Shown here: positions 1,697-7,329 of the stretch, one piece after another
Layout of the letters: every line of letters begins with the position of its first letter
Numbering within the stretch: the stretch's first letter is position 1
Assembly: GCA_964537725.1 (NCBI GenBank)
Contig: CAZICD010000002.1
Location: 32,356 to 96,355, forward strand
Direction of reading: 5' to 3'
Source of the DNA: an uncultured Spirochaetaceae bacterium
GTDB lineage: Bacteria > Spirochaetota > Spirochaetia > DSM-27196 > SLST01
DNA length: 64,000 nucleotides
The notes under the pieces: generated by a model
Database searches by the model: none
What the model saw: only the letters and a program-made list of their open reading frames with translations
Told to the model about the DNA's origin: nothing
Program-made: the position numbers and the translations under genes

Positions 1697-2794
1697 ATGG
1701 AAGAGAAGAAGCGTATTCTGACCGGAGACCGGCCCACCGGCCGCCTCCATCTTGGGCACTACGTCGGCTCGCTCAAGAACCGCGTACGGCTGCAGAACGA
1801 GTACGAGTGTTTCTTCCTCGTGGCGGACCTGCATATGCTGACGACCCGGCCGGAGAAGGAGCACATCGAGGCGATCACCGAGAACGCCCGCCAGATGGCG
1901 TACGACTACATGGCGTGCGGCATCGACCCGGCGAAGAGCGTGATCTACCTGCAGAGCGCGGTCACCGAGACGCACGAGCTCAATCTCTACCTCGAGATGC
2001 TCGTCACGGTACCCCGGCTGCAGAGGATGCCCAGCCTGAAAGATATGGCGCGCAACGCCCACCTCAACGAGATGCCGTTCGGGCTGCTCGGTTATCCCGT
2101 GCTCCAGTCGGCCGACATCCTGCTCCCCCGCGCGCACCTCGTACCGGTCGGCAAGGACAACGAGGCGCACGTCGAGCTCACGCGCGAGCTCGCGCGCCGG
2201 TTCAACAACCTCTACGGCGAGGTCTTCCCGGTCCCCGACGTCATGGTCGGCGACGTGCCCACGCTCGTCGGCACCGACGGGCAGGCGAAGATGTCGAAGA
2301 GCCTGGGCAACGCGATCATGCTCTCGGACGACACGAAGAGCGTGCAGAAGAAGGTCAACGGGATGTACACCGATCCGAACCGGGTCAGCGCGGACGTCCC
2401 GGGCACCGTCGAGGGGAACCCGGTCTTCGTCTACCACGACGTCTTCAACCCGAACACCGCCGAGGTCGAAGACCTCAAGGAGCGCTACCGGGCCGGGAGC
2501 GTGGGCGACGTGGAGGTCAAACAGAAGCTCGCAACCGCGATCAACTCGTTTCTTGACCCGATTCGCGAGCGCCGGGCCGAGCTCGAGGCGAAGAGCGGGT
2601 ACGTGGACGAGGTGCTCTACGAGGGCACGAACCGGATGCGGGAGGAGGCGCGCGAGACCATTCTCGCCGCGCGCAAGGCGATGGGCCTGACCGGTGTCTG
2701 GAACAAGATAAGCCGCAAGGCGGAGAAGGCGCGGAAGAAGCGCGAGAAGGACTCCGGAGCGGAGGCTGTCGGTACCGGGGAGGGCGCGGGCTGA
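1697..2794 (+). CDS. trpS: Tryptophanyl-tRNA synthetase with a Lys/Arg-rich C-terminal tail
   Basis: Class I aaRS motifs: RLHLGHYVG (HIGH-type) and KMSKSLGN (KMSKS). N-terminus [15 protein letters not shown] is typical of TrpS. The extra tail is ...[27 protein letters not shown]. Confidence 0.95.
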
Positions 2795-4299
2795 GCGGTA
2801 CTGCAGGCGACATCCGTGCCGTCGTCTTCGACCTCGACGGCACGCTGATCGACAGCGAACCCAACTATCGGGAGGTCGACGCAAGGTTCCTGCTCTCGAA
2901 GGGTATCCACCTCGCCGACGACGAGTGGGACGAGATCGTGGGGATGGGCGGAGCCCCCTTCGTCGACTACCTCCGTGAGCACCACGGCTTCACCGGCGAC
3001 GCCGACGCGTTCGTCGCGGAGAAGGACGAGCTCTACCTCCAGTACGCGCCCGGGCGGACGATCGCATTCCCGCTCACCGTCGAGCTCGTGCGCTACTTCC
3101 ACGTGCATGGCCTCGCTCTCGCGGTCGGGACCTCCTCGCGTCGCCGCGTGCTCGACCGGATGCTCGACGAGGCGGGCCTGCGGGACTACTTCGTCTCGTC
3201 GGTGGCCGGCGATGAGGTGGAGCGGGCCAAACCGTACCCCGACACCTTCCTCGAGGCGGCGAGGCGGCTCGGCGTCGACCCGACGGCGTGCCTCGTGATC
3301 GAGGACTCTCAGCACGGCGTGGAAGCCGCGCGCAGAGCCGGTATGCGTTCGATCGCGGTGCCCGCCACGACCACCGAGGGGCGACCGTGGTTCGGCTCGG
3401 CCGAGCTGGTATTTCCCGGCGGTCCGCCGAAGATCGACTTCGGTTCGGTAGTCGCGCTCCCGGGCATGCCGGCGCCGCTGGCGGCGCCGGACACGGCGAC
3501 CGTCGAGCGGTTTCGCTCGGTCGTGTGGGACTTCTACGCCGGGGCGAAGCGCGCGATGCCGTGGCGCGACACCGACGATCCCTACCGCATCCTCGTCTCC
3601 GAGTTCATGCTCCAGCAGACGCAGGTCTCCCGCGTGCTGCCGAAGTACGAGGCGTTCATCGAGCGGCTTCCTTCTGTGGACGATCTGGCTTCGGCGTCGC
3701 TGCAGGAGGTCCTCGCGCTCTGGCAGGGGCTCGGCTACAACCGGCGCGGGCGCAACCTCCGCGAAGCGGCCCGGACGATCGTCGAACGGTTCGACGGACG
3801 CGTGCCGCGCAGCGTCGAAGACCTGCGCGCGCTCCCCGGCGTGGGACCGTACACCGCCGCTGCTGTCGCGGCCTTCGCCCACGGAGCCCCCGTGGCTGTG
3901 CTCGAGACGAACATCCGGCGACTTCTCATTCACTACTTCTTCGCGCGCGCCGATCGCGTCGGCGATCGCGAGCTCGCCCCGCTGCTCGAAGCTCTGCTGC
4001 CGCACGGGCACGTACGCGACTGGTACTACGCGCTCATGGACTACGGTGCGATGCTCGGGCGCATCCTTCCGAACGCCAACCGACGCAGCGCCTCGTACGC
4101 GAAGCAGAGCGCGTTCTCCGGTTCGGTGCGCGAGGTGCGCGGCCGGATCGTGCGCGCGCTCAGCCGGAGCCCGGAGCTGTCGATCGAGGAGCTCGAGGTA
4201 TCGATCGGGCCGACCGACGAGCGGTTGCGGCCGGCGCTCGAAGGGCTCGAGCGCGACGGCCTGATCGTCGTCGACGGCCGACGCATCACGCTCCGGTAG
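2791..4299 (+). CDS. Fusion protein: HAD-superfamily phosphatase (beta-PGM-like) + MutY/EndoIII-type HhH-GPD glycosylase + C-terminal winged-helix-like domain. The start codon is uncertain and probably non-canonical.
   Basis: HAD motif [14 protein letters not shown] is encoded at 2821-2859, in frame but upstream of the first canonical start (GTG 2938). Other HAD motifs: [30 protein letters not shown]. Glycosylase part: [39 protein letters not shown] (HhH-GPD). The start given here is CTG 2791, overlapping the trpS stop. ATC 2812 and GTG 2938 are alternatives. Confidence 0.7.
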
Positions 4300-6217
4300 C
4301 GGCGCGATCGGCGCGCGCGACGAGGTCGCGCAGCCGCGCGAGCAGCGCGGCCTCGACGTCCGGCCGCTGTCCCTCGACATCCGCCATTACCCGGAAGACC
4401 GGCTCGGTCCCGCTGCCGCGCATCCAGAGAAAGGCGCGCGCGAGGCCGGTGGCATCGGCGAGCTCGATCTTCAGTCCGCCCCGCTCGGCGCCCGTGCGGT
4501 TGCCGGGGCCCGGACGGACGGCAGTCCGCTCGTAGTTCACCACCCGGTACTCCGTCACCCCCAGATCGTCCGGCAGCGAGGCGATGATCGCGCCCGCCTC
4601 GCCCGCGATCAGCCGTTCCGCCTCGCGCTTGAGCTGTGCGTGCGAGTCGCTGCGGATGCGCATGATCGCGCGCTCCTCGAAGGCGCTCGTCGTCGTGAAG
4701 CGGGGGAGGGAGGCGACGAGCGCAGCGAGGTCGTTGCGTTCGATGCCGCCGCCGGGAAGCCCGCAGCGGTCGATCCAGATGTCGAGCGGGGAGGGAGAGC
4801 CGGCCGAGGACTCGGTGTAGAGGAGCTTGAGCACGGCGTGGATCGTGTGCAACGGATCGCGCACCGCCGACGGGTGGGTGATGGTACCGCCGTTCGAGCC
4901 CTCGCCGAGCATGCGCACCAGGACGCCTTCGCCGCGCAGCTCGCGGGCGCGCGCGACCACGTTCGCCTCGCCCACCTCCGCCCGGTGGAGCTCCGCGCCG
5001 AAGAACCTTGCGATTCGGTCGATCCGCAGCGACGTGGGGCCGTTGACGACGACGGCGACTCTTCGAGATGGCCGGCCGTCGCCGTCGTAGGCGAGCTCGC
5101 CGGTGAAGACGAGCCACGCGAGCTCGGCGGCCGTGGAGAGCGCGAACACCTCCTGCGCCTCGAGCTGCCGCGCCTGCGCCGCCCTGCGGTCGTAGTAGAC
5201 GAGGTTTCCGCGGTCGCCGTCGTTGTCCGGGACGTAGCCGAGGACCCAGGAGGGGTCCTCGTGCGCGAGGCGATCGAGCTCGGCGCGGCACGCGGCGAGT
5301 CCTTCACCTTCCGGTACGATCTGGTGGGCAATCTCGCCCGGTCGGTCGTTGATCAGCGCCAGCCGGCAACCGGTCGTCGCGAGGTAGTCCCGGTCGATCG
5401 TCGCCGCCCGGGCGCTCCCGTTGAGGTCGCCGACGACCCCGGGGCCGGCGGCGGCGACGCCGGAGCGCAGATGCTCGAACGCGCGCGCGGCTCGAGGTCC
5501 GTCGCCGGCGATCACGCGGGTGCAGAAGCTCGAGTAGCGTGCGAGCGAATCTCCCTTGGCCTCGGGGATCGCGGCGAACACCGCACGCTCGGCGTCGTCC
5601 GCCGGCCGCGCGAGCTCGGCCGCGATGGCGGCGAGCTCGTCCGGTTCTGCGACGAGCGCGCGGAAGGCGTCGATCAGGGCGGACGCCTCGTCCCCGCCTG
5701 CGACGCCGCCGTCGCGGCCTCCCATCTTGAGCCCGTTGTGACCGACCGGGTTGTGGCTCGCGCTGACGTAGAAGAAGCCGTCGATCTCCGGCGTCGTCGC
5801 CGCGTACGCCATGACCTCCGGGGACGCGCAGACGAAGGGATAGATCACCTCGACGCCGGCGCCGAGCAGGGTTCTGATCGCGGCGCGCGCGAGCGCGGGG
5901 CCCGTGGGCCTCGTGTCGAGCGCGAGCGCGACCCGTGCGCGGCGGTCGCCTCTGCGGACGAGCGTGGCGGCGAAACAGCGCGCGGCCGCGCCGGCGGCGA
6001 CGAGGAGCTCGGGCGGCACATCGCGAGTCGTGCTTTCCTCGCCGCCGTCGGCTGCGAAGACGGTGCGCCACCCGGAGGCCGACAGGATCATGCGGTCGAC
6101 CGCCTCCCGCACCGCCGTGGCAATCGCATCCGACGGCCCGGCCGCGAAGGCTGGATCGACGATCGGCTCGTCGGGGTCGCCGACCGGCAGGCGCGTCCTC
6201 TCGTCGACGATCAGCAT
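4286..6217 (-). CDS. Phosphohexomutase (phosphoglucomutase/phosphomannomutase family)
   Basis: All four family motifs are present: SASHNPVGHNGLK (phosphoserine loop), PDNDGDRG (Mg2+), GEGSNGG (sugar) and RGSGTEP (phosphate). I take ATG 6217-6215 (MLIVDERT...) as the start. It overlaps the stop of the upstream barrel gene by 1 nt (TGATG). The 832-aa track ORF extension runs through that gene and was rejected. Confidence 0.85.
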   Translation of the reverse strand: MLIVDERTRLPVGDPDEPIVDPAFAAGPSDAIATAVREAVDRMILSASGWRTVFAADGGEESTTRDVPPELLVAAGAAARCFAATLVRRGDRRARVALALDTRPTGPALARAAIRTLLGAGVEVIYPFVCASPEVMAYAATTPEIDGFFYVSASHNPVGHNGLKMGGRDGGVAGGDEASALIDAFRALVAEPDELAAIAAELARPADDAERAVFAAIPEAKGDSLARYSSFCTRVIAGDGPRAARAFEHLRSGVAAAGPGVVGDLNGSARAATIDRDYLATTGCRLALINDRPGEIAHQIVPEGEGLAACRAELDRLAHEDPSWVLGYVPDNDGDRGNLVYYDRRAAQARQLEAQEVFALSTAAELAWLVFTGELAYDGDGRPSRRVAVVVNGPTSLRIDRIARFFGAELHRAEVGEANVVARARELRGEGVLVRMLGEGSNGGTITHPSAVRDPLHTIHAVLKLLYTESSAGSPSPLDIWIDRCGLPGGGIERNDLAALVASLPRFTTTSAFEERAIMRIRSDSHAQLKREAERLIAGEAGAIIASLPDDLGVTEYRVVNYERTAVRPGPGNRTGAERGGLKIELADATGLARAFLWMRGSGTEPVFRVMADVEGQRPDVEAALLARLRDLVARADRAATGA

Positions 6218-7329
6218 CAGTAGTGGAACCCGAAGCCGAGCGAGAACGGTACCCAGCGCTCCCCGGTGACGTCGGTCTCCGTCCAGAGGTAGTTCGTGTA
6301 GAAGACCAGGGTCGCCGCGTTGAAGAGGTCGAGGTAGAAACCTGCGCCGCTGGACAGGAGGGTTCCGCTGTTTTCCGCTGCGACCGGAGAGGTCTGCGAC
6401 GCGTCGTAGAACCAGCCGCCGTCGGTGTAGACGACGAGCCCCGGTACGATCCCGGGAAGCACGATGGCCGGCAGGTTCAGCCTCGCCTCCACGTTGCCGA
6501 CCGTCTTGAATGTCGCGTCGAAACGGCCGGAGCGGTAGCCGCGCACCGAGCCTCCGGTCGCCGAGCGGACCGATCGTCCTCCGGTCGTCGACCGGATGAT
6601 CTGCGGGATCTGCGGTCCGTTCGCCCAGTCGACCACCGAGAACGCCGCGAGGTAGGCGGAGAAGCGGTTTCGTCCGTCGACCGGCTCCGCCTCGTAGAGC
6701 GGGAGATAGCCGCGAAGCGTGAGCGTAGTCCGGTTGTAGTCGGCCTCGCCGAGAAGCTGGTTGTGGAGGAAGGGCGGTCCCCACTCGAGCGCGAGCTCAC
6801 CGGCGATTCCATGCTGTACGCGCGTCACGTCGTTCTTCGCGATCTCGCGGTAGGCGACGCCGCCGACGATCGACCCGCGGATGCTCGAATCGGCCTCCGG
6901 CAGGCCCGAGGCGAAGAAGAGCTGCTCGTCGTCCCCGAAGGGAAGGTCGTACTGCCCGCGGTAGAGCAGGAAGCCGACCGCAGTGTCGGCGTCGTCGCCG
7001 CCGCGGTCGAAGATGCCCTGCTGCACGCCGAGCTGCCAGACGAGGTCGAAGCGATCGTAGCTCGTCACGTCTGGGTCGTTGCCGTCCTCGGGGACGGTGT
7101 ACAGCTCTCCCTCGTCGGTACGGTAGTAGCCGGTGCGCTGGTAGGCGGGAGAGAGAAGCCCGGTGATCGACGTTTCAACGTCGTCGGGCGAAGGCGGTTC
7201 GAGCATGTAGCGACCCGCGACGGTCACGCCCCAGAACCGCGGTCCGAACCGGAACTCCCACTGATCGCTCTGCGCCCACGCGCCCGCTGCGATGAGCAGG
7301 AGCGCTGCGATGCTGCAAATTCGCCTCAT
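6217..7329 (-). CDS. Omp85/surface-antigen-like outer-membrane beta-barrel, with signal peptide and no POTRA region
   Basis: N-terminal signal MRRICSIAALLLIAAGAWAQS. The sequence has alternating beta-strand-like character rich in aromatic and Gly residues. The C-terminus is ...VPFSLGFGFHY with a terminal aromatic residue, typical of barrel proteins. Confidence 0.6.
   Translation of the reverse strand: MRRICSIAALLLIAAGAWAQSDQWEFRFGPRFWGVTVAGRYMLEPPSPDDVETSITGLLSPAYQRTGYYRTDEGELYTVPEDGNDPDVTSYDRFDLVWQLGVQQGIFDRGGDDADTAVGFLLYRGQYDLPFGDDEQLFFASGLPEADSSIRGSIVGGVAYREIAKNDVTRVQHGIAGELALEWGPPFLHNQLLGEADYNRTTLTLRGYLPLYEAEPVDGRNRFSAYLAAFSVVDWANGPQIPQIIRSTTGGRSVRSATGGSVRGYRSGRFDATFKTVGNVEARLNLPAIVLPGIVPGLVVYTDGGWFYDASQTSPVAAENSGTLLSSGAGFYLDLFNAATLVFYTNYLWTETDVTGERWVPFSLGFGFHY

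Follow-up and report, generated by a model that had tools for sequence, protein, structure and literature searches.

What does it mean that a phosphatase of the small-molecule kind is joined in a single polypeptide to a DNA glycosylase, and do the two halves work together? This question is raised by a gene at positions 2791-4299 (+ strand) of a 64,000-nucleotide stretch of DNA from an uncultured Spirochaetaceae bacterium (contig CAZICD010000002.1; hereafter the window), in which a HAD phosphatase precedes a MutY-like glycosylase. The explanation that we favour, and that we regard as reasonably probable, is that two genes lying side by side, one for an adenine glycosylase of the MutYX type and the other for a small-molecule HAD phosphatase, became joined in a single lineage; the product would be translated from a CTG codon, and its halves would act independently. 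Throughout, residue numbers count from the CTG at 2791, taken as codon 1.

One reading frame for two enzymes

In the list of open reading frames (ORFs), the + strand frame that contains position 2791 runs uninterrupted between 2557 and its stop codon at 4297-4299, and 2791-4299 translates to 502 amino acids plus a stop. The protein comprises a HAD-IA phosphatase (residues 8-200), a linker, and a MutYX-like glycosylase that extends to the C-terminus. Such a fusion had been proposed in a sequence-only reading of this DNA, and the presence of Pfam matches for both halves within one open frame bears this out, with the qualification that its 5' end relies on a non-canonical start codon (CTG). The HAD-MutYX reading frame is thus one real gene encoding two enzymes.

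The census of domain architectures that the same reading had proposed retrieved both Pfam domain sets in about 39 clusters (90% identity) that are 48-100% identical to the window protein, the named ones coming from metagenome-assembled genomes (MAGs) of Spirochaetota/Spirochaetaceae. The frame is continuous in 28 full-length fusion proteins, and the fusion homologues come from independent assemblies (NCBI, JGI, ENA, Logan), one of them lying on a 5.55-Mb contig. Only P0020, P0023 and the fragment P0121 span both halves among the best 150 matches in 1.84 billion representatives at 50% identity, and only two full-length matches occur in GTDB species genomes; the HAD-MutYX fusion is therefore confined to one Spirochaetota clade. 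Within this clade, comparison with four close genomes gives ratios of nonsynonymous to synonymous substitution rates (dN/dS) of 0.11-0.29 in every domain and of 0.24-0.54 in the linker.

The sequence-only reading had not recognised the architecture; its novelty holds for the fusion and not for the glycosylase. The HAD fusion is mentioned neither in the text of the study that describes MutYX (PMC12631127; its 46 listed homologues were not checked for fusions) nor in the searchable literature, and the database names of fusion proteins describe one half only. The features of the glycosylase, however, are those of the published MutYX (PMC12631127; PDB 8UUC). The reading had also allowed for a described MutY clade without the cluster in which HAD is a frequent partner: such a clade is known, but its fusion to HAD is not common and is seen in one Spirochaetota clade only. 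As for other MutYX fusions, P0207 is the only one with a Pfam partner among the longest representatives, the remaining extensions carrying no Pfam domain. P0207 (522 amino acids) is a MutYX with a C-terminal TMP-TENI (thiamine-phosphate-synthase-like) domain, found in a single cluster, and represents another fusion to a metabolic domain.

The glycosylase half belongs to the MutYX family

In the second half of the protein, Pfam recognises HhH-GPD at residues 269-388 (E 9.8e-16) and HHH, the helix-hairpin-helix (HhH) motif, at residues 333-362. The NCBIfam mutY model (TIGR01084) scores 185.5 bits against a cut-off of 286.5 and aligns over positions 2-189 of its 277 only, from which it follows that the protein has neither an iron-sulfur loop nor a NUDIX-like (MutT-like) part. 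By phmmer, the closest PDB entry is 8UUC (E 2.8e-64), canonical MutY structures coming at about 1e-37. We also built an AlphaFold2 model on an alignment of 28 fusion proteins (predicted local distance difference test, pLDDT, 90.9; predicted template modelling score, pTM, 0.82). In the fold search that the sequence-only reading had suggested, the best PDB match of Foldseek for its glycosylase part was again 8UUC (E 2.2e-22, 270 of 274 residues aligned, 42% identity), and for its HAD part 1TE2.

The entry 8UUC is MutYX, a clusterless glycosylase from Eggerthella sp. (Trasvina-Arenas et al., Nucleic Acids Res 2025, PMC12631127), whose adenine glycosylase activity on 8-oxoguanine:adenine pairs (OG:A) has been measured. 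It is devoid of a [4Fe-4S] cluster, the loss of which is made good by a lengthened helix H11 together with an additional helix, Hw (Arg193/Arg194); its catalytic Asp is replaced by Glu134, with which the enzyme is active, the Asp to Glu change being tolerated in E. coli MutY too; 8-oxoguanine is read by Gln201 and Arg209; and a 67-residue X domain stands in for the NUDIX-like domain (PMC12631127). The counterparts of these elements in the window protein are as follows.

3505..4065, + strand: MutYX catalytic HhH-GPD domain, residues 239-425 (8UUC alignment; Foldseek)
3601-3603, + strand: Glu271, equivalent to Glu33 of 8UUC (alignment)
3736-3738, + strand: wedge Tyr316, equivalent to Tyr78 of 8UUC (alignment)
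3787-3876, + strand: HhH motif (Pfam/alignment)
3904-3906, + strand: Glu372 in LETNI, equivalent to Glu134 of 8UUC (alignment)
Residue 374: Asn374, equivalent to Asn136 of 8UUC (alignment)
4012..4125, + strand: segment in place of the iron-sulfur cluster loop, made up of the lengthened H11, helix Hw (NANRRS) and the connector between the domains, and free of Cys (alignment and AlphaFold2; roles of the elements from PMC12631127)
Residues 431 and 432: Arg431/Arg432 in NANRRS, equivalent to Arg193/Arg194 of 8UUC (alignment)
4105-4107, + strand: Gln439, equivalent to Gln201 of 8UUC (alignment)
4126..4296, + strand: X domain, residues 446-502, winged-helix-like, followed by the stop codon at 4297-4299 (AlphaFold2 topology; 8UUC superposition; winged helix-turn-helix Pfam matches on homologues)
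4129-4131, + strand: Arg447, equivalent to Arg209 of 8UUC, at the start of the X domain (alignment)

These key positions are invariant or nearly so across the 28 fusions and 264 homologues. The equivalents of Glu33 and Tyr78 are present in 262 of the 264 homologues, as is that of Gln201, while the Arg209 equivalent is found in all 264; the cluster-loop region is free of Cys in 252. That not a single Cys lies between the HhH motif and the C-terminus had been remarked from the sequence, and direct reading of the translation confirms it, as it does the presence of all the glycosylase and tail motifs then quoted. HMMER aligns LETNI with the LDGNV of E. coli MutY, as had been done by eye, and Glu372 falls opposite Asp138 of the E. 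coli enzyme as well as Glu134 of 8UUC. In the AlphaFold2 model, the cluster-loop region forms a helix at 408-425 and then short helices at 429-437, and the X domain consists of helices 446-459, 465-472 and 479-488 with strands 462-464, 492-495 and 498-501. This H-E-H-H-E-E order is a winged-helix topology which, together with the end of the mutY profile match at 189 of 277, agrees with the earlier suggestion that a winged-helix-like tail replaces the NUDIX-like domain.

On the evidence of sequence and modelled fold, the glycosylase half is a member of the MutYX family. It shares with 8UUC an HhH-GPD domain without the C-x6-C-x2-C-x5-C ligands, the Glu of LETN, helix H11 and the Arg pair of Hw, the Gln/Arg couple that reads 8-oxoguanine, and a winged-helix-like X domain of about 60-67 residues; it departs from 8UUC by the N-terminal addition of a HAD-IA phosphatase of about 200 residues and a linker. 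With canonical MutY (E. coli, G. stearothermophilus; 1KG2, 6U7T), it shares about 35-39% identity over some 190 residues, the catalytic fold, SExMLQQTQV, the wedge Tyr, the Asn of DGN and the Tyr of helix H8, whereas it is without the 4Fe-4S cluster, has Glu for Asp, and possesses neither the NUDIX-like domain nor the FSH loop. The odd features of this glycosylase are all already explained by the published MutYX family, of which it is a new member that brings no new principle.

The family itself extends far beyond the 46 clusterless homologues that PMC12631127 lists: at least 150 MutYX clusters (50% identity) score above 210 bits, from Patescibacteria, Desulfobacterota, Spirochaetota and others. 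MutYX is abundant in bacteria of the candidate phyla radiation (many Patescibacteria/Saccharibacteria loci, L019-L071) and also occurs on an archaeal MAG contig (L031, Methanofollis sp.). Some homologues match in two segments, with the break close to query residues 385-390, or have tblastn spans far longer than the protein (P0141, P0150, P0165, P0174, P0179, P0193, P0216, P0234 and P0244; L023, L026, L046, L051 and L052; many are Patescibacteria), which suggests that sequence is inserted downstream of helix H9 or that HhH-GPD genes lie in tandem.

The HAD half resembles sugar-phosphate phosphatases

The first half of the protein matches the Pfam Hydrolase and HAD_2 families over residues 8-190 (E 2.4e-30 and 4.9e-27), with PF13419, PF00702 and TIGR01509 above their cut-offs. 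All four HAD motifs are present, DxDxT being D14-L-D16-G-T18, and the AlphaFold2 model places four cap helices (residues 23-85) between motifs I and II. The features of this half, and the linker that follows it, are listed below.

2812..3390, + strand: HAD-IA phosphatase domain, residues 8-200, with a four-helix C1 cap at residues 23-85 (Pfam, NCBIfam, 1TE2 match, AlphaFold2)
2830..2844, + strand: HAD motif I, DLDGT, with nucleophile Asp14 and acid/base Asp16 (D14 and D16 at least 90% conserved in the 28 fusions)
3130..3138, + strand: HAD motif II, T114-S-S116 (T114 nearly invariant and S116 invariant in the 28 fusions)
3229..3231, + strand: HAD motif III, Lys147 (invariant in the 28 fusions)
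3301..3306, + strand: HAD motif IV, Glu171-Asp172 (D172 invariant and E171 at least 90% conserved in the 28 fusions)
3391..3504, + strand: linker between HAD and glycosylase, residues 201-238, about 35 residues (open in every homologue, less constrained)

Both by sequence (E 5.8e-23) and by fold (template modelling score, TM, 0.82), the top match in the PDB is 1TE2, E. coli YniC/HxpB, a 2-deoxyglucose-6-phosphate/hexitol phosphatase; pseudouridine-5'-phosphatase is also among the PDB relatives. Sugar-phosphatase models score 115 and 109 bits and the Gph model 81, and no NCBIfam equivalog or subfamily cut-off is reached (HxpB 108.9 against 191; PRK10725 105.2 against 215; bPGM 74.9 against 189; PGP_bact 80.6 against 180). 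The HAD half thus resembles HxpB/YniC, YqaB and the beta-PGM subfamily TIGR02009 in its C1-capped HAD-IA fold and its motifs I-IV (against 1TE2, TM 0.82, root-mean-square deviation 2.1 Å, 29% identity), but differs from them in falling below every NCBIfam cut-off and in being fused to a DNA glycosylase. From these matches and the model, we predict it to be a C1-capped, Mg-dependent HAD-IA phosphomonoesterase of small molecules, most like sugar-phosphate phosphatases (HxpB/YniC, YqaB). A PNKP-like role as a 3'-phosphatase of DNA ends was considered and appears unlikely, since, judging from the HAD classification, the C1 cap would enclose the active site and the relatives act on small molecules.

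Origin of the fusion and relationship between its halves

The fusion gene lies in a slot between two genes, which we refer to as the trpS/PGM slot.

1697..2794, + strand: trpS (tryptophan-tRNA ligase), the upstream gene (ORF list; PF00579 called on syntenic genes)
4286..6220, - strand: convergent PGM_PMM phosphohexomutase-like gene, 5' end approximate (ORF list; syntenic genes of 594-643 amino acids carry PF02878)

If it starts at the CTG, as proposed, the fusion gene overlaps the TGA stop of trpS (2792-2794); at its other end, it overlaps the 3' end of the PGM_PMM-like gene by 14 nucleotides. In all fusion genomes, down to 52% identity, the gene order is identical: 2-oxoacid dehydrogenase E1/E2/E3, AI-2E transporter, trpS, the fusion, the convergent PGM_PMM-like gene, an Omp85-like gene, a response regulator and a hybrid kinase. 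In L008, L090 and L091, the trpS/PGM slot contains only MutYX, and in other Spirochaetales (L075, L081, L084) only a HAD (241-243 amino acids, 41-47% identical to the fusion HAD), which overlaps trpS by 4 nucleotides in L081 and L084. In a neighbour-joining tree of MutYX halves, which carries no support values, the stand-alone P0040-43, P0046 and P0041 nest within the fusion clade, and P0044, also from the trpS/PGM slot, is sister to it. These distributions are most simply read as a single fusion of two adjacent genes, followed in some lineages by the loss of either module.

Away from the fusion clade, the 50 stand-alone MutYX loci inspected show no conserved partner. A recurrent HAD neighbourhood of stand-alone MutYX was looked for among them and encountered once, which by a rough, uncomputed estimate is about the number expected by chance. 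This locus (L029, 3608-5676) belongs to a Candidatus Roizmanbacteria MAG and carries, consecutively and on the same strand, a divergent HAD-IA hydrolase, MutYX and nth (endonuclease III with its Cys ligands); its HAD was found by Pfam and missed by the clade-specific HAD hidden Markov model.

In the scheme that we propose, the glycosylase half, by homology to the Eggerthella enzyme, would bind DNA through its HhH motif, with Tyr316 wedging beside 8-oxoguanine and the mispaired adenine flipped out. Glu271 would then provide general-acid catalysis, and the oxocarbenium intermediate would be stabilised by Glu372, where canonical enzymes have Asp, while helix H9 would be held by the extended H11 and the new helix (NANRRS) in lieu of a 4Fe-4S cluster. 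The 8-oxo face of the lesion would be read by Gln439 and Arg447 at the junction with the X domain, and the abasic (AP) site would be left for downstream base excision repair. For its part, the capped active site of the HAD half would act on a small phosphorylated metabolite and not on a DNA end. The fusion would have arisen once, in a Spirochaetota lineage, from two genes of the same slot downstream of trpS, with translation beginning at a CTG coupled to trpS termination. That the two activities operate independently is, we infer, somewhat on the probable side.

The alternative that survives best is that the fusion is functionally coupled, the HAD hydrolysing a small phosphorylated compound that precedes or results from oxidative damage to DNA (for instance 2-phosphoglycolate, deoxyribose-5-phosphate or one of its derivatives, or a damaged nucleoside monophosphate of the 8-oxo-dGMP type), such that repair and metabolite clean-up would be combined. 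Several observations speak for it and, by the same token, weigh against independent halves. Purifying selection acts on each half, and the fusion has been kept in about 39 clusters of a clade diverged to some 48% identity, as would also be expected from functional coupling; the pTM of 0.82 suggests a fixed, defined domain arrangement in the model; and HAD, MutYX and nth are adjacent in the Roizmanbacteria MAG. Moreover, pseudouridine-5'-phosphatase is a relative of the HAD, so that nucleotide substrates are possible. E. coli Gph would, by analogy, provide a precedent for a repair-linked HAD-IA phosphatase adjoining trpS: gph overlaps trpS in the dam-rpe-gph-trpS operon, and in passages of PMC7062713 (citing Pellicer et al. 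2003) and PMC6380167, Gph is credited with removing the 2-phosphoglycolate released in the repair of 3'-phosphoglycolate ends in oxidatively damaged DNA. The window HAD is like Gph a HAD-IA phosphatase encoded beside trpS in overlapping frames, but is only 28% identical to it, and the E. coli gph is unfused and lies upstream of trpS, that is, in the reverse order. To the points that count against our explanation must be added that the activity of every fusion member is predicted from homology rather than from assays, that the tree on which the nesting rests has no support values, and that the CTG start is deduced from the sequence rather than directly observed.

On the other side, the HAD has been lost in nested lineages that retain MutYX in the same slot, related spirochaetes retain HAD without MutYX in that slot, and a HAD neighbour at one of 50 stand-alone loci is, by the rough estimate given above, close to chance. 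The HAD also fits the sugar-phosphatase models better than Gph, while staying below all equivalog cut-offs. Because of these patterns of module loss in the trpS/PGM slot, we rate coupling as unlikely and independence higher; the narrower proposal of a HAD that is a dedicated partner of the glycosylase, dephosphorylating a product of oxidative damage or of its repair (2-phosphoglycolate, a deoxyribose-phosphate derivative or 8-oxo-dGMP), seems to us, if anything, slightly more doubtful.

Concerning the neighbourhood, the PGM_PMM-like gene encodes about 640 amino acids, its relatives match only PGM_PMM_I and, weakly, PGM_PMM_III in Pfam, and its position is kept in all related spirochaete loci. 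The HAD of the fusion being beta-PGM-like and the adjoining mutase gene PGM_PMM-like, a link between them is possible. Within positions 1-64000 of the window, Rfam at gathering thresholds yielded no match, and neither a second MutYX-like gene nor another HAD of the same type was found.

Translation start and integrity of the HAD half

Whether the HAD half is complete depends on where translation begins. The codon at 2791 is CTG, and the first ATG, GTG or TTG of the frame is the GTG at 2938, followed by an ATG (Met) at 2944; HAD motif I (2830-2844) thus lies upstream of the first canonical start. Two features bear on this start.

2777..2784, + strand: Shine-Dalgarno-like GGGGAGGG, with a GGAGG core ending 7 nucleotides before CTG 2791 (sequence; same motif in L001, L003, L004 and L011)
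2791..2793, + strand: probable start codon CTG, in a 4-nucleotide CTGA overlap with the trpS stop (conservation, upstream dN/dS, call of the Prokaryotic Genome Annotation Pipeline, PGAP)

GGCTGA is common to five genomes of the sub-clade; its CTG lies in the reading frame and overlaps the stop codon of trpS, and GGGGAG(G/A)G is conserved 7 nucleotides 5' of this CTG. In a more distant relative (L005), GTGA takes the place of CTGA with the same geometry. The 48 codons ahead of GTG 2938 have dN/dS of 0.14-0.29 against four genomes. From the shared CTGA, the upstream Shine-Dalgarno-like motif, the GTGA of L005 and these constrained codons, we conclude that CTG 2791 is the probable start of translation, in which case initiation would be coupled to the termination of trpS, a start at ATC 2812 being less likely; from either, the HAD domain would be complete. 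Public annotations of the gene conflict, with proteins of 451 (ATG), 495 (ATC) and 510 (CTG) amino acids: in sister genomes, PGAP chose CTG in one case (L004/P0002) and ATC, at the equivalent of 2812, in another, while the identical database protein P0001 is called as 451 amino acids from ATG 2944, without motif I. A -1 frameshift that would fuse tryptophanyl-tRNA synthetase (TrpRS) to the fusion protein was also considered and set aside, relatives starting canonically after a 20-nucleotide gap (L007) or right after the trpS stop (L006) and no slippery heptamer being seen. The C-terminus of TrpRS itself (2700-2794) bears a Lys/Arg-rich extension of about 30 residues, seen also in L005 and L008, the final codons of which double as the ribosome-binding site of the fusion gene.

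A second alternative would be that the HAD half is here a dead remnant, translation starting at GTG 2938 or ATG 2944 without motif I or the nucleophile Asp, and that the glycosylase alone is functional. It draws on the absence of any in-frame ATG, GTG or TTG between the stop at 2554-2556 and 2938, and on the database calls for P0001, P0003 and P0004, all of which begin with MGGAPF. We nonetheless hold it to be quite improbable, for the upstream codons are constrained, DLDGT is intact, motifs II-IV stay invariant, the Shine-Dalgarno-like motif is conserved 7 nucleotides before a conserved CTG at the trpS stop (GTGA in the distant relative), and PGAP itself used CTG or ATC starts in sister genomes.

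Substrate of the glycosylase half

A third alternative concerns the glycosylase, which might have a substrate other than adenine opposite 8-oxoguanine (for example G:A or deaminated purines) or be impaired by the Asp to Glu replacement. In PMC12631127, discrimination of OG:A from G:A was lower in MutYX than in E. coli MutY, and other lesions in anaerobes were the object of speculation. Moreover, the window protein has two active-site differences from the crystallised enzyme: unlike 8UUC, which has a Tyr/Ala swap (Ala116/Tyr132), it has the canonical Tyr354 on helix H8 where the Eggerthella enzyme has Ala, and Val370 where the latter uses Tyr132. Against this alternative stand the conservation of both catalytic Glu and of the Gln201/Arg209 equivalents that read 8-oxoguanine, the activity of the Glu variant in MutYX and the tolerance of the change in E. 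coli MutY (PMC12631127), and the fact that canonical MutY likewise carries its Tyr on helix H8. We deem it about as improbable as the preceding one, and retain adenine opposite 8-oxoguanine as the predicted substrate.

The swap is described as exclusive to the actinobacterial clade and is not taken to define the family as a whole (PMC12631127). The window protein combines a Glu of the Actinobacteria type with a helix H8 Tyr of the Entamoeba/Chlorobi type, a frequent combination, found in 40 of the 264 homologues. About 100 of the 264 have neither the helix H8 Tyr nor Tyr132, which PMC12631127 presents as alternatives; the H8 position is occupied by Ala, Asn, Ser or Gly and the second position by Phe. 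Judging from the alignment, not all of the MutYX family would thus seem to have the Tyr-Glu-water triad.

Finally, that the halves are separate genes, as the sequence-only reading had allowed, or that the fusion is an artefact of assembly or frameshift, has no observation in its favour and is refuted to the point of being negligible by a frame that stays open in this gene and in at least 28 full-length homologues, whose assemblies are independent, by a linker without stops and with dN/dS below 1, and by the roughly 39 two-domain clusters.

Implications

At the level of annotation, this gene exemplifies a problem in which a conserved non-canonical start leads gene callers to cut off the nucleophile motif of the HAD. 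At the level of function, if the halves are independent, as we judge most likely, the protein would be an ordinary lineage-specific gene fusion. If the HAD were instead a dedicated partner of the glycosylase, the protein would be a single-polypeptide module of repair and clean-up in the 8-oxoguanine (GO) system, with a logic that recalls the pairing of MutT with MutY and, likewise, E. coli Gph. In either case, HAD-MutYX is a previously unreported architecture, which could serve to test the role of a phosphatase in the handling of 8-oxoguanine damage.

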